DNA from: a virus
Virus record (IMG/VR): IMGVR_UViG_3300018878_000100
Strand: one strand, 5' to 3'
Length of the DNA: 64,000 nt
The notes under the pieces are model-generated. The model was not told where the DNA came from. It made no database searches and saw nothing but the letters and a program-made list of their open reading frames with translations. Position 1 is the first letter of the stretch; the number at the start of each line of letters is the position of its first letter. Of this stretch, positions 2,403 to 64,000 are shown in pieces. The position numbers were made by a program, and so were the translations under genes.

Positions 2403-2441
2403 CGGGGATGAGAATTTGATTATTCTCATCCCCGATTTTTT
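2403..2441 (+). terminator. Rho-independent terminator
   Basis: CGGGGATGAGAAT (2403-2415) pairs with ATTCTCATCCCCG (2422-2434). The sequence ATTTTTT follows. Confidence 0.65.
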
Positions 2442-2487
2442 ATTTTGCAAAATAAAAAATTAGGAGAGAAAGGAGATAAAAATTTGT

Positions 2488-38400: not shown

Positions 38401-40487
38401 CATATGAAATTCCCACTTTAAATGTTACTACCGATGAATTAGAAGCAAATCCTGGATTATACTTAGAAGGTTTCTTCGAGGGTAGTTCCAAGATGAATAC
38501 AGTTAAATTTATTGGCGGTAAATTAGGTTATAATAGTTACATCATTCTAAAGCAATTGTATACTTTAAATAATAATGCTGGTAATGCCAATGTAACCATG
38601 ACTGATGTTGAATGGTGTCCTTATACTCATTTAACTGAAGGTGACGTATTTGATGCTTCTAAGAAGTATTACATTGATAATGGTCACTATGGATTTACTC
38701 TGTATAATCCTGATGGTTATGTCTATAATGAAAAGCAGTTCAATATTGATGTATTGAGTGGTGGCTTGTATCGTGACGATGGACATGGCGGCCGCACTGA
38801 GGCTGGCGAATTTGCAGCAGACATTACTAATGTTGCCGATGATGCAATTACTATGTTAACCAATTTGTATAGTAATCCTCGCTTCAAGGATGCTAGTGGT
38901 CTAAATAGACCTAATATTACTGGTGTAATTTATATCAATAATACTACTCCTATTGAAGAAAGTTCTATTCAGGATACTTTACAGATGTATTATCCTAACT
39001 TAACATTCTTCTTTGCTAACGTTACTCCTGCATACTCTGCTAAATTCGTTTTAGTAGATAAAGATACTGGTGCAGAAGGATTCGTTGATTACTTAAGTTC
39101 TGATGGATATGGACCTAGTGTTCAGAAGATTAGTCAAGAAGCTATGGCTGGGGATTCCACTTTGTGGTTTACTAACCCATATAGCTTGTATAAAGTAGAA
39201 AGAGCCCACTGGGATTTCTATGGTTGGTCTACTTCTTCCAATGCCGCAGACAAGAGTAAAATTATTTATGGTGATATCAACGATGATATGACTGACGCAG
39301 AAAAGATTGCTGCTCATAATGTAGCTTGGATGGCTGCAAAATCTAAGCTGTTCGCAGCTGATAAGTTTGACTATCCTTTCTATGCTATTTTAACTGAGCA
39401 TGAATACGAAGCAGTCTTCTTAGATTACTTCGACCCAACATATAGACAAGTAGCTAAGGTTGCTTACAGTGATAAGGGTTCTTATATGAATGATAATGTT
39501 CCCGCACCTGTAAACCTAACTGCCGATGATTTGTATATGCGTAATGCATTTAAGGGCTGGACTAATGACATTGAAAAGGCTAAAGTTATTTACGGTGAAA
39601 ATGTTCCTGATGAAGAACTTCCTTTAATCAATGTTTCTATGTATCCTGCAACCAGAGATTATACATTCTATGCGGTATATAAGAAGGAAAGTGTTTTTGC
39701 AAATGTAACTGACCCAGTGAAATACTTTAATTACACTGTAGGTTCTAGTTATACTGACGCATATGGTGAAGGCGGAACTTATGATTATTCTAATGGATAC
39801 ATTTTATCTTTGAAGCCTGAATATAAGAATGGCTTCTTGAAAGGTAAGATTACTTTACCAACTCGAACTCCTTCTGGCATTGATGGTGTAACCGCTGGAC
39901 AACCAATCTATGAATATCGTGGATTCACTGAAGATGAGTATATTACTCATATCTTCTTTGATAGTGCAGCTACTTGTGAAGTTCGTATTATTTACAACAA
40001 TTTCTTTGCTCGTATGAAAGCTTTGAAATATGTTGACTTCCCCGCAATGAAGAAGTTGAGAGTTATTAATAATGGCGCTTTTGAAAGCTGTCCTTACTTT
40101 AGTAACTTTACATTCTGCGACCCATTAGTATTGATTCAAACTTACGCTTTCTCTGCTACTGGTAACTTAGCTGAACCTGTTGATTGCGTATTGAATCCAA
40201 TGCTAAGAGATATTTTAGGTGGAGCAATTTCTTGGGGTATTGCATTGAAAACCTTAACTATTGGTGCAGAAAATTCTCCTTCTCAGTTAACTCAAGAAAA
40301 ATGGTTAAAGAACAAGAGAGATGTCGCTTGTATCGAAAATGGTCAAGGCTCTAGACCTTCTGTCGTAACTATTTATTGTCCATCTGGTATGGAAACCACT
40401 TGGAATGATTGGATTGTTGGTGGAGCTAATGGTCAACCATTCGTAACCGTTGACAGTATTGATAATATCTCTATTGTCGGAAAATAA
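32436..40487 (+). CDS. Giant 2683-aa putative adhesin or receptor-binding protein with BspA-type leucine-rich repeats and YY-type tandem repeats. It has no TAG codons.
   Basis: The 8052-nt ORF is intact with an AAAGGAG site and a TAATAA stop. BspA-like LRR segments are visible (…KEVNFCNIGLVNETALDFSS…TSVTFADGVALNTLYLPASVGSLALT…; …LKYVDFPAMKKLRVINNGAFESCPYFSNFTFCDPLVLIQTYAFSATGNL…). Three repeats of about 35 aa (G.YY.....G.Y.I....FD.N..YY) lie at about 36180-36620. GC content and codon usage are visibly higher than in flanking genes. Confidence 0.8.
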   Translation: MSENYGVKFIPVRGYDSKIQRAEVKDGWIYFATDSGKIYVDSQGQRTIMGSAGAAIYYGEVEKPEVNEDTGYATLPKSAVKGDPKKGDLILNSDGGFYKVELIGEENYTCELLSISGTGGGPGVSTTTRPSITLTLDNTNFINGQEAYFHIHAESALEADGVTPVDTTLNVVYSLGTRISDEVIDNYTTQTRTYKTGESDYEGVPGIIDDYIEIGSLLRESSSSVLSVYVQGANHDEKSRTRTVDLSTSALKLSQVSGYNPATRYPTSGFQIKCGVVGSLSKVLDFYYDDMNTPAETRVIEANVANSTQTFTVGTDKATHGYHTVRIELWQNTGTSSNPKRGLGVAPLQYEIAVIETSNANAKPVIWLGDYKAEYYNYDTIQIPFLVWDPANTNSTKVHLYKNNIELESSPREVKDFSKFDYWEIADAEMNALNSYQISCGETDEKFVKREIEFKVVKDPNRDMTVEQAGLLLDFSATGRSNSESAAKRQLWSYTLNGEKKNAIFENFNWYNNGWMMDSSINQSCLRISNGARLTIPFQQMVFAAGVSGQESHTVEMQFRIRNVQKYDNLITNITRYQGDGVWYEAFKAQKDTGYSNYDAYLQATLDPDTYDNLKFQTVEKNINITNVAAGLYDYDATNVKATGFCVGTQDAFFSNGENTVNVNFVEDELINLSFVYQDSLKYLYIYINGVITGVIKSTDPDAFTINSGNFVFDSSNCDIDLYKLRIYNSDLNVNQIVQNFSVDRKNVKIFDQSNAYALAEENNNLKEFQFSYEAMLRYNEAHPNEPLMPYIIYDTGNATLPYSKDDTKYISVEFVNTNLERAYANGELETLARADGLIAEGETDSDKIKEGVRLYYKHHCPSWISTMTSGDKVEFAVQGTSSEFYPRRNYKIKTKVEGEFNWKPIADFTDKEKAELKPEELEKLNAESGLYMEEDSLNIFLNRGPYAEVFVSDKAKLAQDSKYLGHEECRCADGWYMNNYTNGTDRWTMKVDYMESSGSYNAGFASMVGNGYTKHPLQDYLALLNNTNKLEPVVDSSVIKGIQWGDYRTSLLGFPVMAFQKTGSGDNAKYTFIGFYRMLLDKSSTQVLGFKPSKKVTNKLFPKGLNDEGKMEYKAVRDVAECWEFSNNARGYCSYRDPWSRVELSFTPPTNSTVSNGGYNANEAPVVANSFEYRYHSKDDYIDILYNFKQATQGELDEVAEELGTGTIPKGDLEAGAKALLSTHTNWEKVCKWLWSTNLDAVVSQGTYSKVPVGDTAYEPGVYYVVDGDSYAISNADFDENTTYYVKSEVNYDVISLTAETYISGKYYILNADGEYVIDASTFDANKIYYEQVIEDRYIPVNVCPAEYVYVKGKFYVLTAGGNTVSTTDDVYALSNEEFAGGTTYYEFKDDTLDTLNSRFDLLIAPVDIENATYDANTQYYTWHGMDYDMNDAANGVVINPGHPTGAVRAVETPSQEDWAKGLYYVAAPKEYAGKVYTHDTKEYRAAKFTNEFEDHFDPEYVATYFVMTEVMELYDSRGKNCMMASWGPHEAGGEYIWYPIFYDIDTQLGINNTGIPSFEFNVDATEAGNFSTSDSILWNNFYKFFKDTWIVPKYRNLRGNDTPKFAKLLNADGTSKAPLQSVDYIEKWYTFNPDATNNIACEGERPLLATNLDMYFKYITICNPKAKEEGVAHLGGEGSGGAFAEPDTGTYFYALQGDRSQSRQQFVGNRLEYIDSWLTQGNYARGGANRLWGRISANNRSDLDSDITDVHSDKWTNSVDDPYWVNNVPFGTKTHEFDSEYWIEPTPIRSAYVTAGDDSMNYPSKKYDGIHKMQFVLNELENGIKNSDNYPEQLLYIYGTNQMSDFGDLSKMYWTEFKLEGKADKLTRLKLGHDGTTIDYKDSNASTKTEIGWYNKKLNGITVPTSLPLLKEVNFCNIGLVNETALDFSSSEKMENFRATGASNLTSVTFADGVALNTLYLPASVGSLALTQANLLTELIGHDEDHAYEIPTLNVTTDELEANPGLYLEGFFEGSSKMNTVKFIGGKLGYNSYIILKQLYTLNNNAGNANVTMTDVEWCPYTHLTEGDVFDASKKYYIDNGHYGFTLYNPDGYVYNEKQFNIDVLSGGLYRDDGHGGRTEAGEFAADITNVADDAITMLTNLYSNPRFKDASGLNRPNITGVIYINNTTPIEESSIQDTLQMYYPNLTFFFANVTPAYSAKFVLVDKDTGAEGFVDYLSSDGYGPSVQKISQEAMAGDSTLWFTNPYSLYKVERAHWDFYGWSTSSNAADKSKIIYGDINDDMTDAEKIAAHNVAWMAAKSKLFAADKFDYPFYAILTEHEYEAVFLDYFDPTYRQVAKVAYSDKGSYMNDNVPAPVNLTADDLYMRNAFKGWTNDIEKAKVIYGENVPDEELPLINVSMYPATRDYTFYAVYKKESVFANVTDPVKYFNYTVGSSYTDAYGEGGTYDYSNGYILSLKPEYKNGFLKGKITLPTRTPSGIDGVTAGQPIYEYRGFTEDEYITHIFFDSAATCEVRIIYNNFFARMKALKYVDFPAMKKLRVINNGAFESCPYFSNFTFCDPLVLIQTYAFSATGNLAEPVDCVLNPMLRDILGGAISWGIALKTLTIGAENSPSQLTQEKWLKNKRDVACIENGQGSRPSVVTIYCPSGMETTWNDWIVGGANGQPFVTVDSIDNISIVGK

Positions 40488-40799: not shown

Positions 40800-42731
40800 A
40801 TGATTACTTCTATTAAAAATGCAGATTATTCATTCCTTTTTGCAGATGCTGGAAAGCTACTGTTAGAGCTGGATAGCCAGGGAAAATTGAAGACTCCTCT
40901 GCAGCAAGCTGAAAAAGACGAATTAAATCAATTCGATCGTTTCTCTTCTTTGGAGAAGTATTTTACCCGTTTGGGAGACTTGGTCGATAATGCTGATAAC
41001 CCAATTAAATATTTAATGTTGCCTTTAGATGAACCTTGTTTAGAGGTAAATGCTAATACTAGAATTATTACTATTCCTGATGGTTTCAAGAAATACGGCG
41101 CTGGCGTTCAAGGTGACGTAATTGCCGAGACTTTGTTCTTACGCATTGACCGCTTCTTCGATTCTATGGACTTCATGATGACTGAGCCTTATATTCAGTG
41201 GAAGCTGAAAAATGGTGAGCAGGGCGCAACTCCTATTCCTTATATGGATTATGAGAGCGAGCATCATTTAGGTAAGTTGATTTTGGTATGGCCTTTAACT
41301 GGTGCAGTTACCGCACAAGAAGGTCCTGTTGAATTCTCTTTACGTTTCTTAAAGAGAGATGGCGACAAGGTTGTTTATAGCTGGAACTCTGTTCCTGCAA
41401 CTATCACTATTAAGCAGGCATTAAAGCCCGTAGTTGATTATGTTGAATATGATGATGCTGCTTCTTTATTTAAGCTAGCAATTGAAAATAGTGAGCATAC
41501 TTCTGATAGTGATACTGTAGACCCACCTTCCTTCGATGCTCCTGGCTATTCTATTGGTTTTGAAAACAATGTTATTCATTTGGATAAGAATAACGCTGTA
41601 ACTTTGGCTGGTCAAGCTTGGGTTGAAGGTCAGGGACATTTGTCTTATGATTGGGAGTACAGTAACTTAACTGGCAATATTGTCGTTGCTGGTATCAATG
41701 TTCAAGGTGCTGAAACTACAGCTTTCAAGGAAACTGAAGATGATGCTCCAGTTGAGTATAAGGTTTACTATGTACAAAACGCAAGTGCTACTCCTTATGG
41801 ATATGAGGAATTGCCTCATAATCAGTTCGAAACCACTAAGGAAGAGAATATCGCTATTTATGAGCGTTATGCCATTTATAGAATTACTGAAAGCATTAGT
41901 CCTGCTGCTGATGCTCCTGGTGTTGTAACTGGTACTTACAAGCTAATTGCTAAACATAAGCTAGGATTCCCTTCTGCTTCTAAGTCTTTGAGTGTTACTA
42001 TTCCTGGTCCCGAGGTTTTGGAATTCGTTTCTGGTGATAAAGACGCTGATGAAAAAGCTTTAGGATTGCCTGCAAATGGTATTTTACTAGATGAAAATGA
42101 TGGCTTAACATTGAATGTTGAAGTTAAGAATGATGGTGCGCCTGCTGCAGCTTATCAGTCTATGACTTATTTGTGGAAGAAGAATGTTAACGATGACAAA
42201 GAAGATGGCATGGTTGATGTTATTTCTCACACTTATGATAATAATACCGAGGGTAAGATTGGTAAAGTCACTGATGATTTGACTTTAGAGACTGCTGAAC
42301 CCGGCTGGTATAAGGTTTATGTTACTTCTATGTTGAACCGCGATGATATTGCTATTGAGAGTAATGTTGCTCGTGTGACTAGAGCTCCAGAAGCTCCAGT
42401 CTTGAAATATCCTGCTTCTTCTGAATATTCTAAGCAGCTTGAGGCTCAAGCATTCCCCAACCGCTTAGTTGAAATTGTGATTGAGCATGAGGCTTTTGAT
42501 GAGCCTGTAGCTTTACACTCTGATAGACTAATCTATGAGTGGTACGATGAAGATAAGCTATTGACTCAGGACACTCCTGGTGTTAGCTTTGATGGCAATA
42601 AGCTATTGATTGATGGTAGTAACATTCATGGTGACGTTATGTTCATCCATTGCTATGTAACTAATGAATTAAATGGTGCCTACTCCGCAAGAGAAGATGC
42701 TCACTCTGGTAACTTTGTTGTAAGTTTCTAA
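40800..42731 (+). CDS. Structural protein of 643 aa with no TAG. Its N-terminal domain is paralogous to the next gene.
   Basis: The ORF is intact with a GAAAGGA site and ends in TAA. It shares a domain with the 42753 gene (…RIDRFFDSMDF…LILVWPLTGAVTAQEGPVEFSLRFLK… against …KVDRFFDYMDL…MLIPWCIDGGATAVAGTVQYSIRFYK…). Confidence 0.65.
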   Translation: MITSIKNADYSFLFADAGKLLLELDSQGKLKTPLQQAEKDELNQFDRFSSLEKYFTRLGDLVDNADNPIKYLMLPLDEPCLEVNANTRIITIPDGFKKYGAGVQGDVIAETLFLRIDRFFDSMDFMMTEPYIQWKLKNGEQGATPIPYMDYESEHHLGKLILVWPLTGAVTAQEGPVEFSLRFLKRDGDKVVYSWNSVPATITIKQALKPVVDYVEYDDAASLFKLAIENSEHTSDSDTVDPPSFDAPGYSIGFENNVIHLDKNNAVTLAGQAWVEGQGHLSYDWEYSNLTGNIVVAGINVQGAETTAFKETEDDAPVEYKVYYVQNASATPYGYEELPHNQFETTKEENIAIYERYAIYRITESISPAADAPGVVTGTYKLIAKHKLGFPSASKSLSVTIPGPEVLEFVSGDKDADEKALGLPANGILLDENDGLTLNVEVKNDGAPAAAYQSMTYLWKKNVNDDKEDGMVDVISHTYDNNTEGKIGKVTDDLTLETAEPGWYKVYVTSMLNRDDIAIESNVARVTRAPEAPVLKYPASSEYSKQLEAQAFPNRLVEIVIEHEAFDEPVALHSDRLIYEWYDEDKLLTQDTPGVSFDGNKLLIDGSNIHGDVMFIHCYVTNELNGAYSAREDAHSGNFVVSF

Positions 42732-42752: not shown

Positions 42753-43340
42753 ATGATTATTTCAACCGAAGAATATTATAAGTATCTTGCTTATATTCAA
42801 TCAAACAATCGGCCAACAATTGCTATTTTACCTTCGTCTGAAAAAGTCTACAATATTGACTTAAAAACTCGTCAAATTGAAACGCCAGAGTATCTGAGTG
42901 TTGAACATGACCATAAATCTGAAACGGTCTATTTTAAAGTAGACCGTTTCTTTGATTATATGGACTTGTCACAAACAGTATGCATCGTTCAATATGTAAC
43001 CGCAGATAATAAGGCTCGCATTTATGCAGTACCTTTTTATGATGTTACTTCTTATGCTGACGAGGAAAAAATGTTGATTCCTTGGTGTATTGATGGCGGT
43101 GCAACTGCGGTCGCAGGTACAGTCCAATATTCAATTCGATTCTACAAGGTTGATGAAGTAGGACAGCAATTTATTTATAACTTAAACACTCGTCCAACAA
43201 AGAGTAAAGTATTATATGGTATGGATGTTCAAAAAATTAATCATGATTATGATTTAGCTCCTACTGTATATGATGAAATTATCCAAAAGTTGGATGAATT
43301 TAGTGAAGCTTTAGGTAGCTTCTGGGAAGAGTTATATTGA
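42753..43340 (+). CDS. 195-aa protein paralogous to the N-terminal domain of the 40800 gene, with no TAG
   Basis: An AAAGGAGAGG site precedes the ATG and the ORF ends in TGA. Confidence 0.65.
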   Translation: MIISTEEYYKYLAYIQSNNRPTIAILPSSEKVYNIDLKTRQIETPEYLSVEHDHKSETVYFKVDRFFDYMDLSQTVCIVQYVTADNKARIYAVPFYDVTSYADEEKMLIPWCIDGGATAVAGTVQYSIRFYKVDEVGQQFIYNLNTRPTKSKVLYGMDVQKINHDYDLAPTVYDEIIQKLDEFSEALGSFWEELY

Positions 43341-43348
43341 TAGTTTTA

Positions 43349-43380
43349 GGGAGAGATTTTATATCTCTCCCTTTTTTTTA
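43349..43380 (+). terminator. Rho-independent terminator
   Basis: GGGAGAGAT pairs with ATCTCTCCC across a TTTATA loop. A T8 run follows. Confidence 0.7.
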
Positions 43381-43458: not shown

Positions 43459-44343
43459 GTGGCTGATTTAGCTTTACAGTTTAAGTAGGGTCAATATGCT
43501 TCAGGTAAGTTTGATAATTCAAATGCAAATCATTTGAAACACGAAGCTGGTACCCTTTATCTTGCAACTAATGAAGATTATTCTGCTTATTTATTATTTG
43601 ATGATGGCGTTAACTTTTTGAATATTATTCCATAGATGTTAGGTTATCACCACGGTGGTACTGGTGTTGATTTATCAAAGAATACTCCCGCAAATGCAGT
43701 TTTAATTCAGAATACTACTTTAAATGGTATTGCTAGTGTTGCAAGTGCAAAAGGTGCTTTTTATTCTACTGGAACAAATTTAACACCTCAATTTGGAACA
43801 TTGCCTGTCAATGTTGGTGGTACCGGTATTACTACTGCAACAGCTGGTGGTATTTTATATGGTAATGGAACTAATGCTTTCAAAGTAACGGCAAAAGGCG
43901 CAAAATCTGCTATCTTAGTCGGTGGTAATGGAACTCCCGCATTTGCGGCTCCCGCAGTTTCTTGGATTGCAGGTACAACTGCAGGTCCCACATTTAGATT
44001 TGCATTAAATGGAACAAATTTTGATGCAGTTATTCCTTCTGCTTCAACTACTGCTTCTGGTATTATTACTAATGATATTCAAACCATTGGAGGCCATAAA
44101 ACTTTCAATGATGGTCTTACTATTAATGGTACTGCAAAATTTAATGGTGGATTTTAGATTGTTGGTGGTATTGATGCATATTATAATTCTTCTAGTGACC
44201 AATCTGTCGGTTCATTAGAAGTTATTGGTGGTATTACCGCCACAATGAATATGCGTGTTGACGGAGGAGCTATTCAATTTAAAAAAGCTGGTAAAATTCA
44301 ATATGATGATACAAAAGAATGTTTTAATTTTGTATTCGCATAA
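43459..44343 (+). CDS. Tail fibre protein, copy 1, about 294 aa, read through 3 TAG codons
   Basis: An AAAGGAGG site lies 7 nt upstream of GTG 43459. Frame 1 runs through track ORF 43636.. to TAA 44341-44343. Fibre motifs are present (LPVNVGGTGITTATAGG; ASGIITNDIQTIGGHKTF). It is paralogous to the 47164 gene. Confidence 0.6.
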
Positions 44344-44355
44344 GGTGGTGGCAAT

Positions 44356-46773
44356 ATGAGTTTACAAGTATGGTTACCATTAAATAATCATATTAATAAC
44401 CAAGGATTAAATACTATTCGTTTTAAAAGCTCAAATGTTTCTTACACTCAAGGTAAGTTGGGCTATTGCGCTAGTGGCACCATTCAAGGAACTGCCGCAG
44501 AATTAAATTCAACAGATGGTTTTTGTTGTAGTTTCTGGTGGAATATTGCCAATGGAGATAGCTATAATATTAAATTTCCTATTACTAACACAGGTATTGA
44601 TGATATTTTTAATATGGCAAAAATGGATTATACTTCCAATTATGCTATTAAATTACATTGCAATAATAACAAACCTCAAATGATTTGGATTTATGATACT
44701 CGTTCTACTTCTGGAGTATGGGAGCTTGGAACCTGGAATCATTATGTTATTAATGTTAATAATGGAGATTTCGGTGTATAGGTAAAAGTATTTGTAAATG
44801 GAGCTTTAAAACATCAATACAATAGCGCTGATTATAATTTTACATTACGCCCTGGTACCATTAGTATTAGTGGAACAGCAAAAATGAATGATTTTAGATT
44901 ATATGACCATCCACTTTGTCTAAAAGAAATTGATGAATTAAGTAGAGGTCTAATGCTTCATTATCCTTTACGAGATAGTACTTTACAAAGCACAACTAAT
45001 TATTTATTGTATCCAACCCCTGGTAGTAGAGTAAGTGCTGGATGGGACTCTTCTTTACATCCAAATGCTATTAATGTATCTGGATTTACTGCAGGGTATA
45101 ACAGTGGTGTTGATTCACCAACAATTGGTTATCATGCCTATTGGAATGTTATAGATGACGTGCCTACAATGGTGTTTCCAAATTTAAATTCAGCATATAA
45201 TTATAAAGGCCGTTGGTTAGGAATTTCTTCATGGGGTACTGTTAATTTAGCGTAGGCGATTGGTAAAGGTAATAAATATACTATTTCTTTTGAAGCTAAA
45301 AGTGATATAAAAGGTAAAACAGTACAGTTTGGTTTATATTATAGAAAAAATGGAGCAACTTCAAATAACTTCCATGATGGACAACATTAGTAGAGCTTAA
45401 CTACAACTTGGAAAAAATATTCATACACTTGGACTCTTGGACAAGACGGTGATAGTTCTAATGTGGGAGCAGTATATATGTATGGTCATTATGGTATTGA
45501 AGGAACTGCTTATGTAAGAAATATTTAGTTAGAAATTAATGACCATGCAACAGATTATGTTTCTGGTAGTAGAGAAGCTTCTAAGGTCTATGACTGTTCG
45601 GGTTTTGGACATCACGGTCGTGTAGTAGGAGCAGTATCGATGATGCCAGATTCTAGTCGCAATAAATATTCTGCATACATCACAGATGGTCGTAGTAATT
45701 ATATTGCAAGTGATACTATGATATTTCCAAAAGATAGTATAACTATGAGTTGCTGGGTTAAAGGTAGTAACGCAGGATATAGTAATTATCATATTCCATT
45801 AAGCTTTGGTAGTGCTAATTATGAATTTTCATTGGAGGGAACGACTGGTAAATTCCGCGCTGGATATGTTATTAGTGGAACTCGCTAGTGCGTAACAACA
45901 AATGGTACTACTATTGATGGGAAATGGCATATGATTACATCTACATTTGATGGAACAACTATTCGTAGATATGTTGATGGAATACCTTTAACATCTACTG
46001 CGGCCGCAGGTACTTTATCCGGTGGTACTGGTAATTTATTGGTTGGTAATTATAATGGTACTACATATGGTAATAGTAAATTATATACTAGTGATGTTAG
46101 AATTTATGCTACAGCACTAGATGAACTATAGATTAAAGAATTATATTTAAATGGTGCCACTGTAGATAATGGTGGTAATGTTTATGCTTATGAGTTCACT
46201 GAAGAGGGCGACAACTCAGTCTTTAAAGAAGGAGTAGTTGACTTTGAGAATTTTATTGAGTATAATATTAATAAGATAATGAGATATGATGGTGATTTGT
46301 GGGTACAAATTTTACATCATAATAATAGAGCTGGTACTAAGTATTTTACACCATCTAATGCCGCCAATCATACAGAAGAAGACTTATATAGTAGGCTTTA
46401 TTTAACTGAATAGTTAAGAGGAGCTGATGGTGCATTTGAATTTTTAGTTTTGCAACCTGATGATGATGCAGGTACTGTATATAGATGGATTCAAACAAAT
46501 AATCCAAACAATACAACTTCTGTAACAGGATTTAAAAACATTTCTAATATGAGTGGAGGATTAGTAAAATGCTCGGGTAATACTCATTGGGCAATTTCAA
46601 CCTCTACTGGAAATTGGTGGAATGCAGTGGGATGCTGGACCGCTTATAATGGAGGCATTCCTGGATTTGGTAAAAAAACTATTAAAGGGTCTTTAGATGT
46701 GTATGTAAAGTTAGATAAAAGAACAAGCTTTTTAATCGACTCTATTGAAACTCAAAACTATTATGAATTTTAA
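44356..46773 (+). CDS. Receptor-binding-like protein, copy 1, about 805 aa with two LamG/concanavalin-like domains, read through about 8 TAG codons
   Basis: Frame 1 is continuous through track ORFs 44356.., 44884.., 45640.., 45931.. and 46450.. to TAA. LamG_3-type motifs are present (…MNDFRLYDHPLCLKEIDELSRGL…; …GNSKLYTSDVRIYATALDEL(Q)IKELY…). It is paralogous to the 49432 gene at both the N- and C-termini. Confidence 0.6.
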
Positions 46774-46862
46774 CTTGGACTAATAAGATTAAAGTTCATG
46801 AAATAAACATCATTATTATTGAGAATAAATCTCAAAATTGAATTGAAAAGGAGATTACAATT

Positions 46863-47084
46863 ATGTTAAGAATGGACAATATGAATGTCAACTTTAATGG
46901 CGCTAGCGTAGTTGACGATGTTGTAGTCGCAAATATGAGCGCAAGTTATTCTGGTGCTGAGGTATATTTCAACATGACTATTATTGACTTGGATGGTTAT
47001 AATGGTAACAAAGAAGTTGTTGAATTAGACTTTGATAATTTCAAGGATAAAGCCTTAGAGGGCATCAACGGAATTGCACTCTAA
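46863..47084 (+). CDS. Hypothetical 73-aa protein
   Basis: An AAAGGAGA site precedes the ATG and the ORF ends in TAA. A strong terminator follows. Confidence 0.5.
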   Translation: MLRMDNMNVNFNGASVVDDVVVANMSASYSGAEVYFNMTIIDLDGYNGNKEVVELDFDNFKDKALEGINGIAL

Positions 47085-47092
47085 TAATTCAT

Positions 47093-47128
47093 AGGGGTGA
47101 GGATTTATCCTCACCCCTATTTTTTTTT
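47093..47128 (+). terminator. Rho-independent terminator
   Basis: AGGGGTGAGGAT pairs with ATCCTCACCCCT. A T9 run follows. Confidence 0.7.
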
Positions 47129-47163
47129 GATATATAGATTTTGAAGAAAAGGAGTGAAAAATT

Positions 47164-49416
47164 GTGGCACAATTAAGAGATTTAATTGTTAATGGGCCTT
47201 CTCGTTTTCTTGGAGTATCTACATATAATGAAGATGTACTTCTAAATAAAGGTGCAATTGCTTATGATGTTATTATACCAGGAGAAACCTTAACCTATAA
47301 TTTAGGTACAGCAGATAACGCTTGGTTAAATATATATGGTGCAAACCTAAGAGCATCAACAGCAGTTATTGTTACTGGCAGTGCAGAAGCGACAGCCGCA
47401 AGTTCTGGAGCAATTCAAGTAACTGGCGGTATTTATGTAGCTAAAAAATCTTTGTTTGGTAGTGATATTTATTTAGGCTCAACATCTTATTATTTAAATG
47501 GCACAACAAGTAAACTAAATGGCTTAACAACTGCCAGTACTATTACTTCTGGCGGTAATGTTGTTCCAAGTGAGACTAACAAAAAGAGCCTTGGTACTTC
47601 TAGTTTGCGTTGGGCTAACTTATATATTGTAAATGGTAACGCTTCTGGCTCACTATCTGTGTCTGGAACTGTAACTTCTACTGGCGGTTTTATTGGAAAT
47701 TTAACTGGCAATGTTGTTGGTAATGTAACTGGTGATGTTACAGGTAATCTAATTGGTGTTGCTGATAAAGCTAATCGTTTAACCAAATCAGGTGGTAGTA
47801 CTGATAGACCAGTTTATTTTACTACTGATGGAATTCCATAGCCTACTACTTATCGTATGGCTGGCACTAATGTAACAGCTACAACAGGAATTGCGATTGG
47901 CAGTGCCACTAATACTGGTATTTGGTATGTTAATGATACTTCTGGTATTCTTGGTATTAGTGATGGTGTAGCTATTGTAAATAAATATAACGACTCTTGG
48001 ATTACTCAAATTTATCAAGACTATCGCACTGGTCAACTTGCGGTTCGTGGTAAAAATAATGGTACTTGGCAAGATTGGAGAGTTATTCTTGATGAAGATA
48101 ATTTTACTAATTATCTTGATGGTCATTATAATGGTAAATATGTTTTAAAAACAGGCGATACCATGTCTGGCCCTCTAGTTATTCAAACCAGTGAAAATAA
48201 ATTAACAATGAATACTAGTGGAAGTATTACTACTGAAGTTACAAAAAGCGGTGGATGGGCACGATATATTGATTGGAAATAGAAAAATACATCTAGTGAT
48301 ACTGCAAGCGTAAAAGCAGAAATGGGTGCCTATGGCGCAGGAGGAACTTTAAATTATTGGTATGTTGGTACTGGTTGGGAAGAAGAAAATACTTGGTTAT
48401 AGGTTAATGCAACTGGCACCACTGTAAAAGGAATTCTAAATGCAAAAGGTCATGTTTATTTAACAGGCTCTCACGCTAGTTCTAGTACTGGTAATACAAC
48501 TCAATTAGTGTTTGGTACACCAAGTGAAAATCATGTCGTATTATCTTCTAATGATAATGCATTAGTTATTAATCCAACTACTTCTTCCACCACAAATTAG
48601 ATTGTTTTATATTTAAATAGTAAATCTAAATTCCCTAGTGGCTTAGACGTAGGCACAGCTTCTTCTTTTGCTTCTGATGTGAATATCGGTGGTAATTTAC
48701 AAGTTACTGGCTCTATTAAAGGATTAAGTACTTTAGCCATTACTGGCGCCACAACTTTAAGTAATACTTTATCTGTAACTGGAGCTGCTTCATTATCAAA
48801 TACTTTAACTGTATCAAAAGTTACTACCCTAAACGGAGGTCTTATCGTTAGTGGTAGACCTTATGGCTCTGGTGATGATGAAGGTATTGTTGTTGCACCT
48901 GCAGCTAACGGATATGCAGGTATTACTTTAGGTAGTGCTTCTGGTATTAGAAGTACTCTATATTTAACACCAGCTGATAGAACACATAGAGCAGTTTGGC
49001 GTTACTATAATGGTACAACCAATTATGATGTTACGCATCCTGAAACTAGTGGTGAATTGGTGGTACATACCGCTGATACAGCCGCAGGTAATGCTAGTGT
49101 TCCCGTTTATATTGCTGCTTCTGGTGTCGCGACCGCAATTACCTGTCTTGAACCTTCAAAAGGTGGTACTGGTAATACCAACTTAGTGAGTGGACGTTTG
49201 GTTTATACTGAGGCTTACAACGGTTCAGTCAGAATGACTTCTGGCGGCAATCATTATGCAAATGCTACTAAGGTTGCTATTAATTCAACTGCTGCCCCCA
49301 CAGGAGCTTTCCATGTGCAAGGTGATACATCTATCAACGGAGCGATTACAGTTGACTCTAAGGTAAAATTTGTGTATAATAGTACCGATGAAAGTTTAGA
49401 TTTTATATTTATTTAA
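47164..49416 (+). CDS. Tail fibre protein, copy 2, about 750 aa, read through 4 TAG codons
   Basis: An AAAGGAG site precedes GTG 47164. Frame 1 runs through track ORFs 47164.., 47857.. and 48679.. to TAA 49414-49416, with TAG at 47839, 48283, 48400 and 48598. A fibre motif is present (…PSKGGTGNTNLVSGRLVYT…). It is paralogous to the 43459 gene. Confidence 0.6.
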
Positions 49417-49431
49417 GGAGGAGATTAATAT

Positions 49432-51858
49432 ATGAGTTTATTAATATGGTTACCATTACATGGTAATTTAGAAAACTATGGTTCTTCTCCAATAAAATTT
49501 AGTTTAAATACTACTGGTGGCGGTGTTGCAGCTGCCACCAGTGGTGGAAAAACAGATATGCGCTGTTATCAACGAACAGCTATTAATACAGTTTCTCATA
49601 TTACTAGTGATTCCACAATTGATTTAAATAAAGATTTTACTATGGCATGTTGGTGTTATCCAACCACTCCTGGTAATGCTACTTCTGCAAATGGAATTCT
49701 AACGAATCATAATCATTCTCATAATAGTGATAAAGGTAGTGGTTCAGGAATTACTTTAAAATATAGTGGTAATACAACTTGTTATATGAGTTGTAATACT
49801 TCTTCTTCTACTGGAAGAACATATTATTCATATTATGGAACTACAAACATCTATGGAGCTTGGCATCACTTATGTTTAACCTATAAGAAATCTACTAAAA
49901 CTTATCGTTTATTTGTAGATGGTATTTGCGAAAAGGAATTTACTTGCGAGAATGTATCTGCTGCAAATAAATTTAATATATTTGATTGGTCTGTCGGGCA
50001 TTCAAATAATGGGTCATATAGACCCGCCTGTAAAATTAATGATGTGCGAGTATATGATGAATGTTTATCCAAAAGAGAAGTGAAATTATTAAGTCAAGGT
50101 TTAGTTTTACATTATAAATTAGATGGCGGAAATGCGAATAATTTATTAACTAATTCTTATACGATTGGAAATAGACAAACCTCTTTTGATAAGGTCTATG
50201 GATTTCCTGTCTGTAGTGCAGATAATAGTGCAGGCACTGGATATAAAGATTTTGCTTCTTGGGGAGGACACTCTGTTTCTATAAATGAAGTATATACAGC
50301 AAGTTTCTTTGCTAAATCATCTACTTCAAGTACTTTAACTATGTACTTTTATAATAATACATCTGGCGTGGTTCAAGTTTCTAATATTAAATCATCTGAA
50401 GGACATAATAAAAGCGGCAGTGATGGCAATTGTCCTCTATCATTAACTCCTCAATGGAAAAAATATACAGTAACTTGGACTTTTGCAGCAAGCGGAACAA
50501 CTACAAATAAAACCTTGCTATTTAGACTTGCGGCAGGTGGTAAATGTGATATAGCTTTACCAAAATTAGAAAAAGGTTCGATTGCTACCCCTTATTGCCC
50601 AGCATTAAGTGAAACATTTTTTAATGCTGCTGATGATTGTAGTGGATATGGTCGTAATGGCACAACAGTTGGTAATATTACTTTTAGCTCTGATACTCCA
50701 CGCTATGCGGCAAGCTCTGTGTTTGATGGTTCAACCACAGGCATTAATTTACCAATTAAAGATTTAATGAAAGCAGTATTGAGTGATAAGTGTACTATTA
50801 ATTTTTGGGTAAAAGAATCAAATACATCAAGTAGAAGTATTTACTTTGGCGGTTATAGTGGTAGTAATTTTAATATTGAACAAAATGTAACATCTTTCCG
50901 AGTATATTGGAATGGTAGTCCAGATTTATCAGTAGGTACAATTACTAATAACGAATGGGCTATGTGGACTGTTACAACAGATATTGCTACTGGTATTAAA
51001 ATATATAAAAATGCAACTTTAGTAAAAACTCATACGGGTGCTCTTACTAATATTGCTTCAAGTTTTACAAGAGATTTTAATATTGGTAAAGATAGTAGAA
51101 CTGATGATACAATGATGGAAGGTAAAATGTCAGATTTTAGAATTTATGCTTCTGTATTGTCTGCTACTGATATTAAAGACTTATATCAAACTGCAGCGTC
51201 AATAACTAAAGAGGGTTCTGTATAGGCTTATGAATTTATTGAAGAGCCTGATAGTTTTGATATTAAAATGACTAAATAGGGTATGTTAAAAGCTGCTGAC
51301 ATTTCTGAAATTGGATATATTGGCGGTATGAAAGTTAAAGTGCTATCCGACAATAGTGCTTGGGCACGTATTCATTGGCTTGACGTGACTACGGATAAAA
51401 CTTGGTTTACTGCTAGCGAAGTTGCCTTTTGCAATTAGGCTAATCGTTTTAGTCGAATGGGTTTAGTAGACCATTTTAAAGTAGATGGTAAATATGAGTT
51501 TATGTTAACTTATCCGTCTTTGTCAAATTCTTTATATAATAGATGGACACAAACAAGCTCTCCAAATGCAAGTACTGTAACTGGTTTTACTGCTATTACA
51601 ACAGCATGGAATAATCATAATGCAGGCATTCGTAAACATGGTTCAGCTTGCGTCTATAACTGTGACACTGGCTCAACTTGGTTTGCTCCTATTGGACAGA
51701 AATCTGCTTGGGATAGTACTAAATTTATTCCTGCCGCAGATGGCACTTCACAAACTGAAACAGAATTGTGGGTAAGAATTGATACATTACCCAACTTAAC
51801 AAAAACTAGTATGCTTGATAAAGAATATTTACAAGCATTTAAGATATATGAAATTTAA
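49432..51858 (+). CDS. Receptor-binding-like protein, copy 2, about 808 aa with LamG-like domains, read through 3 TAG codons
   Basis: A GGAGG site precedes the ATG. Frame 1 runs through track ORFs 49432.. and 51457.. to TAA. The N-terminus (MSLLIWLPLHGNLENYG against MSLQVWLPLNNHINNQG) and the C-terminal domain are paralogous to the 44356 gene. A LamG motif is present (…MSDFRIYASVLSATDIKDLY). Confidence 0.6.
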
Positions 51859-51877
51859 GAGAGAAAGGAGTATTTAA

Positions 51878-54800
51878 ATGGCACAAGTAAATGATTTACT
51901 CGTCCTTGGAAAAGCTAATTTTTTAAATGAGATAACTTCTTCTCAATTATTAAGAGCCTTTGGCGGTATTGCAGTAGATAGTTCAACTGAAGAATCTACA
52001 TCTTTACCTTATTTTTTAGGTATTAAAGCTTTTGCTGATGGTGGCAATGTTGTTTGGTCTAGTCCCACGAATACAGCTAATGTAATTAGACTTAATGCTT
52101 CTGGAACTTGGCCTATTAGTATTAGTGGTCTTGCCGCAAAAGCAACCGCTGATGCAAATGGAAGTACTATCACTTCTACTTATGCGAAGTTAAAATCTTA
52201 TAATGATATGATTCATTCTACAAATGAATATACATTTGCATCTCCGGCTTATTCTGGAGCCATTTGGATTAACTATCGAACTGCAAGTGGAGCAACTGAT
52301 GGTAATATTACTACTTATAATTTTGGTAATGGTAAAGGCGGAACTGCAGGAGTTACTCTTGTGGCAACAACTTTTAATGGCAATGCTACCAGCGCTAATT
52401 ATGCAACTTCTGCTGGTAATGCAAACACTTTAGATAATATTGATTCTACTGGATTCTTAAGATATTACAATAGTAATACTGCAATATCATCTACTGAAGT
52501 TGTTAATACTCCATCTTATGTACATACGGTTAGTACAACAGGTGGAAATATTACAACATCTGTGAAACCCTCTGGCATGAACAATGCATGGGGACTTATT
52601 CACTTACATACTCATACTGGTAATTACGCTACCTAGTTAGGTTTCGGTGGCACAACTGGAAATTTATATATGCGCAATGCTTATAATTCTGCAACTTTTG
52701 GTAGTTGGAAAACTATTCTTGATTCTGGAAACTGGACAAGCATTGTCGATGGAAGATATTTAAAATTATCAGGCGGAACAATGACTGGCTTAGTGTCATA
52801 TAAAACCACAAATTATACTTCTACTCCAATGGCAATATATGATGACGGAACAAATTATGGACATAGCTTAGTTATTGGTGCTGGCGGCACTACTTATATT
52901 GGAGCTGGTGAGGCTGCTAGTACTTTATATTCAACAAAACTAAAAGTTACTTCTACTGAGGATTTAATTCTCGGTGCAGACAGTAATATTAGATTTCATA
53001 CGAATGCAGATAATGCAACCACCACGAATGGAGTAACTCTTAATACCTCCAATTATTTTTATCCATAGACAACTAACACTGGTAGTGTTGGTACTTCTGG
53101 TAATAAATGGGGTTCCATGTATGCCACAACCTTTTATGGAGCTTTAAGTGGTAATGCTACAACAGCTAGTGCTTTAACTCCGATTACTACAAATGATTTA
53201 GCTTCTAGTAGTACGACTAAAAGACGCATTTGGTTTTGTTATGATAATAATACAACAGGTCGACCTGCTTATGATGATAGATTTACAATTCAAACTTCTA
53301 CTGGAACATTATTTGCTCCAATTTTTAGTGGTAATTTAAGTGGTAATGCAACAACAGCAACTACTGCCAATGCCTTAGCAAGTACTGGTTATGGTAATGG
53401 TAATTTTACTTGGTTTCAAACTTCTGGAGAGTTCGCTGGCAATAGCGGATGGGCATCTTATTTAGTTTCTAATCATGGAGATGGCTCTAGTTATTATCAT
53501 TAGATTATTGCTATACCATTTTGGGATCCTCCAAAATATCGCCGCATGGAGGGTAATACTAGTACCGTTAAAGGCTGGTATGATTTTATTACTGATGAAA
53601 ATTATACTACCAAGTTAGATGCTCGATATTACACCGAAGCAGAAGCCGATAGCCGTTTTGTAAATGTAACTGGCGATTCCATGAGTGGAACGTTAAGTTG
53701 GAGCGGAAATATTTCAAGTTTAAATTTCCGCACTGGACATAGTGATTATGATGGTGTAATTAGTTATCAAACAAGTGGTAATGAAGCTATGTTATTTACT
53801 ACTAAAAACGTAGTTACGAGTTTTATGTTTGTTAATGGTGAAGACACTATTACTAATATGGCTGCTGATAGATGGACTAAAATAACTCCCGGTTTACAAA
53901 TTAAAAATAATTGTGTTGCGATTGGTAAATTAATTGCTAATGGTAGTACTCCCAGTTATAAACTAGAAGTAGCTGGAATGACATATTCTTCAGGTCGTTA
54001 CTTATCTGAAACAGTACCTTCTTCTTGGATTGATGGTTAGCGTTATAATAACGGTGCTTATAATGTAAATACTTATTCTAATGATGGCAGCTATAATCCT
54101 TGGATACGTGCAACTAATAGTCATGCTAATGTTGCTAAGTGGTTTAGTTTTGGTACATTAGGCAAACAATTTTATTGGATTGGTTCTACTACGAGTCGTA
54201 CTGAAAATAGTTATGATAAAGGTATGTCATTTAATGTTGAATCTGGTTTATTATATGCTCCAATTGTTGGTGGCGATAGAATTTATACTGGCTATGATGC
54301 TGGAGTAACTGGCTCTGTATCTTGTTCTAATTGGTTCCGTTCAAGTGGCGCAACAGGTTGGTATAATGCTTCTTATGGTAATCATTTATACCCAAATACT
54401 GTAACAGGTTATGGCGGTTTTATGATGTATGGTAATGTTAGAGGTGGATATGAAGGCATTATTCTTGGTAATAGTACTAGTTATATGACATTGATGTCAA
54501 GTGACCCTCATCAAGGATTGTATAATGAAGCAAAAGGACGTTGGATTATTTATTATAATAAAACTAATAATCAAACTTCTGTAAATGGCGCTTAGACTTC
54601 AGCAACAGCTTTTCCATTTACTATTTTTGGTGCAACTTATATTGATGGTCGTTTGGTTGTAAAAGGCAATGGTTCTTCTTATAATGAAGGTATTCGTGTT
54701 TTACCTGCATCAAATGGATGGTCTAACTTATTCTTCTCTGGAACGAATACTGTAGAAGGCACTCATGATGGCGGTTGGTTAATCGGTCGTAGGGGAACAG

Positions 54801-55405
54801 CTGGAAGTACTTATGGTGCAGTTGGAGATTTCTGTATTGAAAATAATAATAGTGTTGGAAGTAATTTAACGTTAACTAAAGCTGGTATTTTAGTTAATAT
54901 TGGACCAATCTTTGGCTATAGATATAAACAAACTAGTAATGGCGCTGCTTTTATGTGGGATAAACCTGGTAGTAATTACACTGGTATGGGCGCTAATGAT
55001 TCTAGTGACACTATTCAATTTAGAGCTTGCGATATCGCTGGTAATTGGGTAGATTATAAACAACATTGGAATTTCTATGGTGATTTATTTGCTTATGGCG
55101 CAAGATTTGCAAATAGAGGTACTTCAACATCTACTTCTGCTTATAGTGATTCAGCAGTTGAAATTCGTGAATACGGTTTTGGCGGCGCTCAATCTGATAC
55201 TTGGGGAGTTGCTCCTCGTTTAAGTTTCCATTGGAGTGGACGTGTTGCAGCGCAAATAGGTCTTGCTTCTAACGGTAAATTATATATCAATAATAATACT
55301 CAAGGAAGTACTACATTCTTACAAATTGTCGGTATGACTGGCTATGGTACTGCAGCCCCATCTGGTGCAGCTCCTGCTGGTTCAGTTTATTTTAAATATA
55401 GTTAA
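51878..55405 (+). CDS. Large tail fibre or tail spike protein of about 1175 aa, read through 6 TAG codons
   Basis: An AGAAAGGAG site precedes the ATG. Frame 2 is continuous through track ORFs 51878.., 52670.., 53117.., 53546.., 54224.. and 54653.. to TAA 55403-55405. Fibre hallmarks are present (YLKLSGGTMTGLVS; VTGDSMSGTLSWSG). The product is Gly, Asn and Thr rich. Confidence 0.65.
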
Positions 55406-55416
55406 CTAATTAATTG

Positions 55417-55463
55417 TATACCTGAAAGATGCTTAAAAAAGTATCTTTCAGGTATTTTTTTTT
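55417..55463 (+). terminator. Rho-independent terminator
   Basis: ATACCTGAAAGAT pairs with ATCTTTCAGGTAT around a large loop. A T9 run follows. Confidence 0.6.
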
Positions 55464-55686
55464 GACTTTTTTCTTCCTATTTCCCGCCAATAGAGGTCCT
55501 CAAAAAGAATTGTCCCAACACAAAAATAATCTTTATTCCCTCCTAAAATGGCATTCTCGAGGTCCTAGTGGGAACTCGTCTCGGTCCCCGGTTGGTCAAT
55601 TTAGATTAATTTTTCGGTCCTAATTTTCACTATACTATGAGGGGATGGATAATGAAAATTTTTTGTATGGAAAGGAGACCTTACAT
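55464..55686 (+). promoter_or_regulatory. Non-coding region at a module boundary carrying repeated GGTCC(T/C) motifs; a putative regulatory region
   Basis: GGTCCT/GGTCCC occurs at about 55494, 55561, 55584 and 55616. TCTCG(A)GGTCC half-sites recur at 55556 and 55578. The track ORF 55429..55623 is low-complexity and probably spurious. Confidence 0.3.
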
Positions 55687-58532: not shown

Positions 58533-58579
58533 AAAAAGGGTCGTATATGATTTATTCATATACGACCCTTTATTTTTTT
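58529..58579. terminator. Bidirectional rho-independent terminator between the convergent + and - modules
   Basis: An A7 run precedes GGGTCGTATATGA pairing with ATATACGACCC across a TTTATTC loop. The sequence TTTATTTTTTT follows. Confidence 0.7.
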
Positions 58580-62654: not shown

Positions 62655-64000
62655 TTAACTAAATTTACTATGTTTGATGCGGTGTTCAACCTCTGACTGT
62701 TTTCCTTTGTTAAAATGATGATAGTCAGTAGTTAAATAACCAGTAACACGACGCAGCTGTTGAATGTTCTCACTGCCGCACTCGGGACAAGCATCATTGA
62801 ACTCGCCCTGGTAGCCGCAATCTAAACAAGAGTCGATTGGGAAATTAAAAGCTAAATAAGGAATATTTAGTTCTTTAAATGCGTAGTCAATAATCTGCTC
62901 AATAGCCTTGGTATTCTTTACAAATGTAGAATCTAATTCAACATAAGTAATGCATCCGCCAGTAGGATACTTACAGAAAGGAGACTCAACAGCTAATTTC
63001 TCAAAGATACCAATTTCATACCATACAGGAACATGGTGACTATTGGTTAAGAACTCATGGTCAGTAACATTAGGAATAATACCATACTGCTGACGCAAAG
63101 CCTTTAATGCGGTATGACATAAACCTTCGGCGGGAGTTGCATAGCAAGAGAAGTTTAAGTCATGGCGCTCAGAAGCTTCTTTAGCGTATTCGTTAATTCT
63201 CTTAACAACTTTCAAAGCGAACTCGCGCACATTCTCATCTTCAGCATGATTCTTGCCGAATAGAGCCTGACACATTTCTGCGATACCAATATAACCCATA
63301 GCCAAAGTACCATGCTTCAAAGCCTCATAGTTAGATACTCGGCAGCTTTGAGAATCCTTCATTGTACCATTCTGATACATAAAAGGTGCGGCCTCGGGTG
63401 GCTGATTAACCATAATATCGAAACGCTCCAAAAGACCTTGCTCACAAAGCATCAATAAATCCTCGAATGCAGACCAGAAGCCGTCTAAATCCGGGGTCTC
63501 ACGCTTGCCTAAACAAATTCCGTATTCAATACCTAATTTGGGCAAAATCATAGTATCAGGAACAAGGTTTCCACGACCGACACGATTATAAGAATCACTA
63601 TGTCTGTCATAACCAAGCATTGTGCGGCAACCCATAGTTGCGAAATATGTGTCTGGATTACTTAAATCTTCATGTGCTTCAGAATAATCACAATTGACAA
63701 AGTTAGGATAAATGCGCTTACTCAAAGACTCAATAGCTAATTTCTTTAAATCATAGTTAGGGTCTTCGGGATTAGCATTGCAGCCCTGCTTATATTGGAA
63801 AATACTAATTGGGAAAATAGGAGTTAAGTGATGTTTACCAATACCAGCCAAAGAAGCCTTTAACATATGTTCACTTACAAAGCGACCCTCAGTAGAAGTA
63901 TCACGACCGAAGTTAATAGAAGTGAAAGGAACCTGGCTGCCCGCACGGGACTCCAAAGTATTTAAGTTATGATACATAGCCTCAGAAGCTTGAGTTCCCT
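62655..64000 (-). CDS. nrdD: Anaerobic ribonucleoside-triphosphate reductase (class III), C-terminal about 448 aa. The N-terminus lies beyond the window end.
   Basis: A Zn-ribbon (CLDCGYQGEF…CPECGS) and the glycyl-radical motif RRVTGYL are present. The frame is open to the window edge. Confidence 0.9.
   Translation of the reverse strand, partial: GTQASEAMYHNLNTLESRAGSQVPFTSINFGRDTSTEGRFVSEHMLKASLAGIGKHHLTPIFPISIFQYKQGCNANPEDPNYDLKKLAIESLSKRIYPNFVNCDYSEAHEDLSNPDTYFATMGCRTMLGYDRHSDSYNRVGRGNLVPDTMILPKLGIEYGICLGKRETPDLDGFWSAFEDLLMLCEQGLLERFDIMVNQPPEAAPFMYQNGTMKDSQSCRVSNYEALKHGTLAMGYIGIAEMCQALFGKNHAEDENVREFALKVVKRINEYAKEASERHDLNFSCYATPAEGLCHTALKALRQQYGIIPNVTDHEFLTNSHHVPVWYEIGIFEKLAVESPFCKYPTGGCITYVELDSTFVKNTKAIEQIIDYAFKELNIPYLAFNFPIDSCLDCGYQGEFNDACPECGSENIQQLRRVTGYLTTDYHHFNKGKQSEVEHRIKHSKFS

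Follow-up and report, generated by a model that had tools for sequence, protein, structure and literature searches.

Jointed and branched modular receptor-binding assemblies are well known. The long tail fibre of phage T4 is encoded in one transcription unit in the order rod, connector, rod (gp34 rod, gp35 knee-cap, gp36, gp37), and the C-terminus of gp34 is thought to contact the gp35 knee (PMC5537660). The Klebsiella phages KP32, K11 and KP34 have a conserved N-terminal peptide that is needed for incorporation of the second receptor-binding protein (PMC13352976), and LtfB of phage DT57C was inferred to attach through LtfA (PMC4728585). The KVP40-like Vibrio phage ValKK3 encodes a tail fibre (ORF346), a virion structural protein (ORF347) and distal subunits (ORF348/349). 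Here we compare these systems with a locus at positions 43459-55405 of a 64,000-nucleotide (nt) stretch of viral DNA (IMG/VR record IMGVR_UViG_3300018878_000100), hereafter the window. The locus encodes three fibre-like proteins, gA, gC and gE, alternating with two multi-lectin proteins with LamG domains, gB and gD. We propose that it is a modular adhesion-fibre array, the products of which may join, in a chain or with branches, into one composite fibre that has lectin proteins as its nodes; we put the probability of this reading at about 0.45. We found no description of the connector family, of the junction peptides or of the iterated arrangement reported below.

The five collinear plus-strand genes are located exactly where the first-pass annotation had placed them, as translation of the frames confirmed (Table 1). 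Under the standard bacterial code the region yields fragments only, with 0/5 genes intact. All 23 internal stops are TAG, and the stop codon is TAA in each of the five genes. When TAG is read as sense, the coding length of long open reading frames (ORFs) in the window is 77 kb, up from about 55 kb; with TGA as sense the effect is far smaller. The phage is TAG-reassigned (code 15-like), with in-frame TAG in conserved genes and termination at other stops. Homologues with the standard code have various residues opposite TAG (D, K, T, Y, N, Q), and translation of TAG as Gln is only assumed from precedent (PMC9523058). No tRNA, suppressor tRNA included, was found in the 64,000 nt of the window. The two GTG starts, at 43459 and 47164, have strong Shine-Dalgarno sites 7-9 nt ahead, and the N-termini that they imply are backed by homologues in relatives.

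Junctions between fibre and lectin genes were compared in 78 further viral loci (L012-L089); counts for the first junction refer to 69 non-redundant loci. Among all loci assembled by then, 53 use the standard code, 24 TAG as sense and 6 TGA as sense. The loci are related and not phylogenetically independent, and the motifs were partly derived from the loci tested. Because of this relatedness, the Fisher tests overstate independence. The reciprocal scan described below and the collection of bacterial genomes are partly independent of the motif-defining loci.

At the first junction the fibre ends with ...YNSTxxSLDF[IV]F and the lectin protein begins with MSLxxWLPL; the consensus of the fibre tails is ...VTLQYNSTDECLDFVFN, and LamG heads follow M[SA]LxVWLPLNGxLxNxG. 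A LamG gene directly follows 49/59 ORFs with the tail motif, compared with 26/776 other ORFs (odds ratio 141). A hidden Markov model (HMM) built on the fibre tail gave 72 significant matches, every one of them at the very C-terminal end of its protein. The same model also matches ValKK3 ORF346, the fibre encoded before ORF347 (E-value 2e-5). The C-termini of gp34 from T4 and Cronobacter phage S13 resemble the motif by eye, a likeness to which the HMM gave no support (E-value 79 for T4 gp34, no hit for S13 gp34).

At the second junction the lectin protein ends with [hydrophobic]-x-E-x and the next fibre starts with MAQLxDL[LI]V.G (the MAQL peptide). This head is present on gC, gE and more than 40 fibres of relatives, the remainder of each fibre being unrelated. 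Of 20 ORFs with a C-domain, the fibrinogen-like domain found at the end of gB and gD, 18 directly precede a gene whose product begins with a form of MAQLKDLLV.G. For the reciprocal count, a DNA-pattern scan ascertained on the MAQL peptide alone gave 27 real fibres, 25 of them with enough upstream sequence, and a LamG or C-domain gene is located directly upstream of 21 of these 25. An earlier alignment-based search with the peptide, too short as a query, had confirmed three loci. The ORF preceding a MAQL fibre ends with [hydrophobic]-x-E-x (FIEI, IYEI, FYEL etc.) in 32/48 cases versus 66/880 (odds ratio 25), an enrichment that is independent of a detectable fibrinogen-like domain. On one 206-kb NCBI contig (GCA_045633265.1; L091 11990-13093), an IS605 OrfB/TnpB-type gene is inserted between a free C-domain gene and a MAQF-type fibre.

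The two junctions define positions within a locus. Each of the nine fibres flanked on both sides by LamG genes combines a MAQL head with the tail motif at its C-terminus (9/9), the first fibre of a locus never carries MAQL, and the last fibre lacks the tail motif. Neither the fibre-tail motif nor the LamG head nor the MAQL peptide was ever found internal to a protein. The locus in the window follows the same pattern: gA has a non-MAQL N-terminus, MADLALQFKQGQY..., in common with the first fibre of relative L007, and gE has no C-terminal junction motif. The grammar is found across three genetic codes, and also in bacterial genomes and metagenome-assembled genomes, mostly of Firmicutes (e.g. Coprococcus ammoniilyticus and Clostridium transplantifaecale). 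One relative, of 174 kb, encodes its anchor fibre directly after an SPP1-type Dit and next to an SPP1-type holin.

The number of fibre plus LamG pairs is one in L009, two in the window, and three in L007, L008 and L010. The fibre and LamG genes of the three-cassette relative L008 contain no TAG at all. The first-pass annotation had interpreted the two pairs as a module duplication involving two tail-fibre paralogs and two LamG paralogs. The recurrence of the pair, fibre then LamG, in relatives agrees with a repeated module, and the LamG proteins are indeed paralogous; the fibres are not. Alignment of gA with gC is limited to the last 24 residues (E-value 0.014), leaving no detectable paralogy, and we reject it. 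gC and gE are 41% identical over their first ~48 residues and share some internal stretches. The third large gene, gE, is fibre-like as proposed, and has a 42-residue module in common with annotated tail fibres. Weak similarity was observed between gC and T4 gp37 (E-value 2e-4), and between gE and the distal long-tail-fibre subunit of ValKK3 (E-value 2e-7). Searches of Pfam, PHROG and PDB found no relatives of gA, gC or gE, and a search of isolates with gA gave no match.

The LamG proteins gB and gD are collinear over residues 1-804 and 1-801, respectively (BLASTP E-value 9e-39, 24% identity), and, as first annotated, both begin with MSL(Q/L)(V/I)WLPL and have homologous domains at the C-terminus. 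The longest DNA match between the copies, 52 nt with 75% identity, spans the start codons of the two LamG genes. Sequence divergence indicates that the duplication is old, because so little DNA is shared and the proteins are only 24% identical. Each protein contains two Laminin_G_3 stretches (E-values 2e-21 and 2e-30), and both belong to PF13385, with scores of 77 bits for gB and 106.6 bits for gD at a gathering cut-off of 27.6. The order of modules in gB and gD is LamG, carbohydrate-binding module (CBM), LamG, and a fibrinogen/ficolin-like C-domain. The modules of gB are LamG, CBM_4_9 (residues 301-367), Laminin_G_3 (444-593) and the C-domain (623-805; nt 46222-46770). Those of gD are Laminin_G_3 (58-218), a BppA-like CBM (~230-397), a LamG similar to tetanus toxin Hc (~400-594) and the C-domain (611-808; nt 51262-51855).

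A PDB search with the gD sequence alone gave no result, and structural matches were obtained with a profile of 36 gD homologues against solved structures. Residues ~66-214 match pentraxins (E-value 2e-8), residues ~230-397 match the Tuc2009 carbohydrate-binding accessory protein 5e7t_B (E-value 2e-7), and residues ~395-594 match the lectin-like half of tetanus toxin Hc (E-value 1.5e-12). An AlphaFold2 model of gD (mean predicted local confidence, pLDDT, 82.5) matches the neurexin/laminin LG and neurotoxin Hc binding folds. The C-domain, formed by the last ~200 residues, is the best conserved part of the LamG proteins and is often a gene of its own: many relatives encode it as a free-standing ~200-amino acid (aa) protein that is 50-67% identical to the gD copy. 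At E <= 1e-3 its family comprises 1152 cluster representatives. Its fold, from a model of a homologue and not of gD itself, is similar to that of fibrinogen-related lectins of the ficolin/intelectin type; at the sequence level gB and gD have no match to Pfam Fibrinogen_C at E <= 0.1. A role of gB and gD in adhesion to host glycans is plausible, since all four of their modules have lectin-type folds.

Compared with relatives segment by segment, gD is a domain mosaic. Its N-terminal LamG is 49-51% identical to those of L008_838 and L009_849 and just 31% identical to that of L007_1009, its middle part is closest to L007_1009 (71%), and its C-domain is closest to L010_1071 and L008_991 (60-62%), with just 35% identity to L008_838. 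The mosaic shows that recombination has occurred inside the LamG gene. Despite the mosaicism each end of gD retains its usual type of neighbour, which fits selection for linking of interacting termini and also fits simple linkage.

Three strong intrinsic terminators are associated with the locus. The proposal that each fibre plus LamG cassette is bounded by terminators is correct as to the terminators themselves; the units that they delimit are gA-gB-gX and gC-gD-gE, so the first includes the 73-aa gX and the second the third fibre. Spacers from fibre to LamG gene and from LamG gene to gE are 12-19 nt long, unstructured and provided with ribosome-binding sites, and contain no terminator. Within gC-gD-gE the spacers of 15 and 19 nt are thus uninterrupted, terminators being found at both ends and none internally. 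No shared promoter-like motif was found by eye downstream of the terminators. In the window, in L007 (3913-4134) and in L008 (4820-5041), gX comes after the first LamG gene and ahead of a fibre of subtype MAQ[LI]R[DE]L[IL]V. Fibres of the MAQLGNLLV subtype have small acidic-tailed proteins of ~172-177 aa in the place of gX.

Like the T4 long tail fibre, the locus shows a rod-connector-rod order in one transcription unit, and gC and gE are weakly similar to T4 gp37 and T4-like distal subunits. Unlike in T4, each connector is a large protein made of several lectin modules, and up to three copies of the unit occur. Homology of the connectors to T4 gp35 was considered and rejected (E-value 0.16 for gD, no hit for gB). 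The gp35 of phage S13 has a C-terminal extension homologous to the C-domain of gB and gD (E-values 1e-11 and 1e-7). This protein (L002 4984-6489) consists of a T4 gp35-like core followed by the extension of ~170 aa, which T4 gp35 lacks. Related modules thus occupy joint positions in T4-type fibres, namely the gp35 knee of S13 and ValKK3 ORF347, which has a gp36-like gene on one side and the genes of the distal subunits on the other.

The resemblance to ValKK3 extends to the first junction. The N-terminal LamG of ORF347 is 40% identical to that of gD over 246 aa and starts with MSLIAWYPL, and the upstream fibre ORF346 ends with ...YNSTSESIDFIFS. Unlike gB and gD, ORF347 has 1152 aa and no match to the C-domain; ORF348 starts with MAKLGPTNIFG, without a clear MAQL peptide; and ValKK3 is a T4-like myovirus with Gram-negative hosts and the standard code. 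The branched receptor-binding systems are similar in having a short conserved N-terminal peptide on secondary fibres, the rest of which is variable. They differ from the locus described here in that a separate lectin protein is encoded between the fibres, a second candidate docking pair is located at the fibre C-terminus, and docking itself is a prediction. At E <= 0.1, none of gA-gE gave a Pfam match to a T4 gp10-like branching domain. A link to lactococcal phages is the middle module of gD, which matches Tuc2009 BppA (5e7t_B, 'minor structural protein 5') and is 37-38% identical over ~100 aa to extensions of the Skunavirus major tail protein. In those phages the module decorates the baseplate or the tail tube; here it is one of four modules in a protein coupled to a fibre end.

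Strictly terminal, pairwise-conserved peptides at every junction argue for docking between successive gene products. In the composite fibre that we propose, the conserved termini would serve as docking elements, and the products, in the order gA, gB, (gX), gC, gD, gE, would assemble head to tail or as branches. gA would be the anchor at the tail tip or the baseplate, with gB and gD as glycan-binding connector nodes, gC as an internal rod and gE as the distal rod. Duplication would then add a rod-plus-node segment, with more reach and more glycan-binding sites, and not a second self-contained cassette. That the products dock physically, that they do so in series or as branches, and that glycans are bound are all inferences. 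Docking of the lectin protein on the tip of the preceding fibre is better supported than docking of the next fibre on the lectin protein. More tentatively, we speculate that two orthogonal pairs of terminal peptides (tail ...YNSTxxSLDF[IV]F with head MSLxVWLPLNG, and tail [hydrophobic]-x-E-x with head MAQLxDLLV.G) may constitute a portable 'plug-and-socket' grammar concatenating one to three or more rods and multi-lectin nodes into jointed or branching fibres. This grammar might span Firmicute siphovirus-like phages and prophages, its first pair reaching T4-like Vibrio myoviruses, an extension that we likewise consider possible and rather doubtful.

Several observations weigh against the composite fibre. 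All its support consists of gene order and conservation, and co-inherited linkage of modules could produce both. The strong terminator and gX separate gB from gC, and the modules of gB and gD are all lectin folds, typical of terminal adhesins. MAQL fibres occur without a detectable fibrinogen-like C-domain in 21 loci, 4/25 MAQL fibres have no LamG gene upstream, and L008 has two MAQL fibres past its last LamG gene. S13 gp35 carries the C-domain, yet the next fibre is gp36-type and not MAQL. Fused (Rosetta-stone) forms, fibre-LamG or LamG-fibre, are absent from the 314 proteins and 1191 ORFs searched. The covariation between D/N in the fibre tail and residue 4 of LamG was noticed post hoc (p 0.001) and is outside the top pairs in an unbiased mutual-information scan. 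The idea that a fibrinogen-like pocket holds the MAQL peptide, by analogy with fibrin knobs and holes, is weakened, because MAQL fibres exist in those 21 loci lacking a detectable C-domain.

Some of these points suit independent parallel fibres, as originally proposed for the locus. Here gA with gB, gC with gD, and gE alone would attach separately to the baseplate, the MAQL heads being baseplate anchors and each lectin cap having a receptor specificity of its own, for dual or triple specificity in all. The coupling of fibre C-terminus to LamG start supports such tip-capping, as does the exclusively lectin-type make-up of gB and gD, and the two terminator-bounded units, the two terminal MAQL fibres of L008 and the MAQL fibres without a detectable C-domain are all compatible with separate attachment. 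Baseplate anchors are harder to reconcile with MAQL fibres following this LamG family nearly always directly (21/25) in widely different carrier phages, with the conserved tail on the ORF upstream of them (32/48 vs 66/880), with MAQL on every internal fibre and never on the first, and with the lack of a terminator between gD and gE. We consider parallel fibres the chief rival of the composite fibre, a possible, if somewhat unlikely, arrangement. Dual receptor specificity as such is possible, though it is not the simplest prediction of the grammar.

A role for gB and gD as chaperones of assembly, or as caps that the fibre encoded upstream carries only transiently, is improbable; they would then not be lasting parts of the virion. 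Their downstream position and tight coupling to the fibre C-terminus are those of tail-fibre assembly proteins, and chaperones that act as transient caps have been described in other phages (PMC10579305). Such a role has to contend with a size of ~800 aa and four lectin-type domains, with the annotation of both the ValKK3 homologue and the best PHROG family as 'virion structural protein', and with the C-domain being found also in a virion component, the gp35 knee protein of S13. The earlier suggestion of a host-range switching reservoir, taken here to work through inversion, exchange of cassettes or targeted mutagenesis involving the two copies, would fit the duplicated modules with conserved ends and the mosaicism between phages; it is very improbable given that the inverted repeats are just 18-26 nt long, imperfect and not of the invertible-segment type, that the longest DNA shared by the copies is the above 52 nt at 75% with no long repeats between these old, 24% identical paralogs, that no recombinase or reverse transcriptase was detected among the neighbours scanned (a part of the window ORFs), that the same arrangement is fixed in several samples, and that both units look normally expressed.

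If the junction peptides of the proposed composite fibre are docking elements, they would provide a simple assembly code for multi-part receptor-binding fibres that is readable from sequence. The phages that have the code form a large and mostly uncultured group from gut and environment, and prophages of Lachnospiraceae and Clostridia have it as well. It would help with correct annotation of fragmented, recoded fibre loci and with prediction of which protein sits on which fibre. It would also offer portable connectors for swaps of host-range modules, as already practised with the Klebsiella pair of branching domain and conserved peptide. The comparison also places a fibrinogen/ficolin-like fold, best known in animal innate-immune lectins, in phage adhesion proteins, including a T4-like knee protein.

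Table 1. Genes, junction motifs and intrinsic terminators of the fibre locus, in window coordinates (dG, free energy of folding; bp, base pairs)
Feature	Position	Strand	Details
Intrinsic terminator closing the upstream unit	43348..43372	+	10-bp stem + U-run; dG -16.4 kcal/mol, z -5.2
gA, anchor fibre	43459..44343	+	294 aa; GTG start; 3 in-frame TAG
gA C-terminal junction motif	44269..44340	+	...GAIQFKKAGKIQYDDTKECFNFVFA; fibre-tail HMM
gB, multi-lectin protein	44356..46773	+	805 aa; 8 in-frame TAG; starts MSLQVWLPL, ends ...QNYYEF
gX	46863..47084	+	73 aa; phrog_2566 (function unknown)
Intrinsic terminator between the units	47091..47120	+	13-bp stem + U9; dG -23.5 kcal/mol, z -6.6
gC, internal fibre	47164..49416	+	750 aa; GTG start; 4 in-frame TAG
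gC N-terminal peptide	47164-47214	+	MAQLRDLIVNG
gC C-terminal motif	49342-49413	+	...KVKFVYNSTDESLDFIFI
gD, multi-lectin protein	49432..51858	+	808 aa; 3 in-frame TAG; starts MSLLIWLPL, ends ...AFKIYEI
gE, terminal fibre	51878..55405	+	1175 aa; 5 in-frame TAG; N-terminal MAQVNDLLVLG, ends ...VYFKYS
Intrinsic terminator closing the second unit	55418..55455	+	17-bp stem + U9; dG -23.3 kcal/mol, z -8.5

Megablast against deposited phages gave no result, and no Rfam family was found in the window. Several samples have contigs, the longest of 160 kb, for which an identical 808-aa gD product is recorded. The window consists of a phage-like plus-strand gene block (58-58532) followed by minus-strand genes that include an anaerobic ribonucleotide reductase. 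The latter gene, NrdD (62655-64000, minus strand), runs off the end of the window, with Pfam profile positions 143-562 present; its counterpart in L007 has 735 aa and an ATP-cone.

Directly upstream of the locus there is a pair of paralogs, 40800-42731 (643 aa) and 42753-43340 (195 aa), that are 29% identical between residues 50-200 of the former and 4-149 of the latter (E-value 1e-18). The N-terminus of the 195-aa protein is near-identical in L007 and L008, where the protein is encoded directly before the anchor fibre, and it may be the attachment site for gA.

Three giant ORFs are located at 2416-11763 (3115 aa), 11888-19531 (2547 aa) and 32436-40487 (2683 aa). The use of TAG as sense is very uneven among the genes of the window: 51 codons in the first of these ORFs, 17 in the second, and zero in the third as well as in 27550-29031, 30581-32302, 40800-42731 and 42753-43340, with 3-9 in many other ORFs. 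The 2683-aa protein has a BspA-type leucine-rich repeat and weakly matches Bacteroides phage proteins annotated as hypothetical. A Firmicute host is suggested by the Shine-Dalgarno sites and by the relatives; the weak matches of this neighbour point otherwise.

The 190-nt spacer after the gE terminator (55456-55644) is unusually G+C-rich for the genome and contains four GGTCC repeats, with no match in Rfam. Farther downstream, where plus- and minus-strand genes converge, there is a hairpin (58535-58571) with a perfect stem of 16 bp and U-runs on either strand, which looks like a bidirectional terminator.

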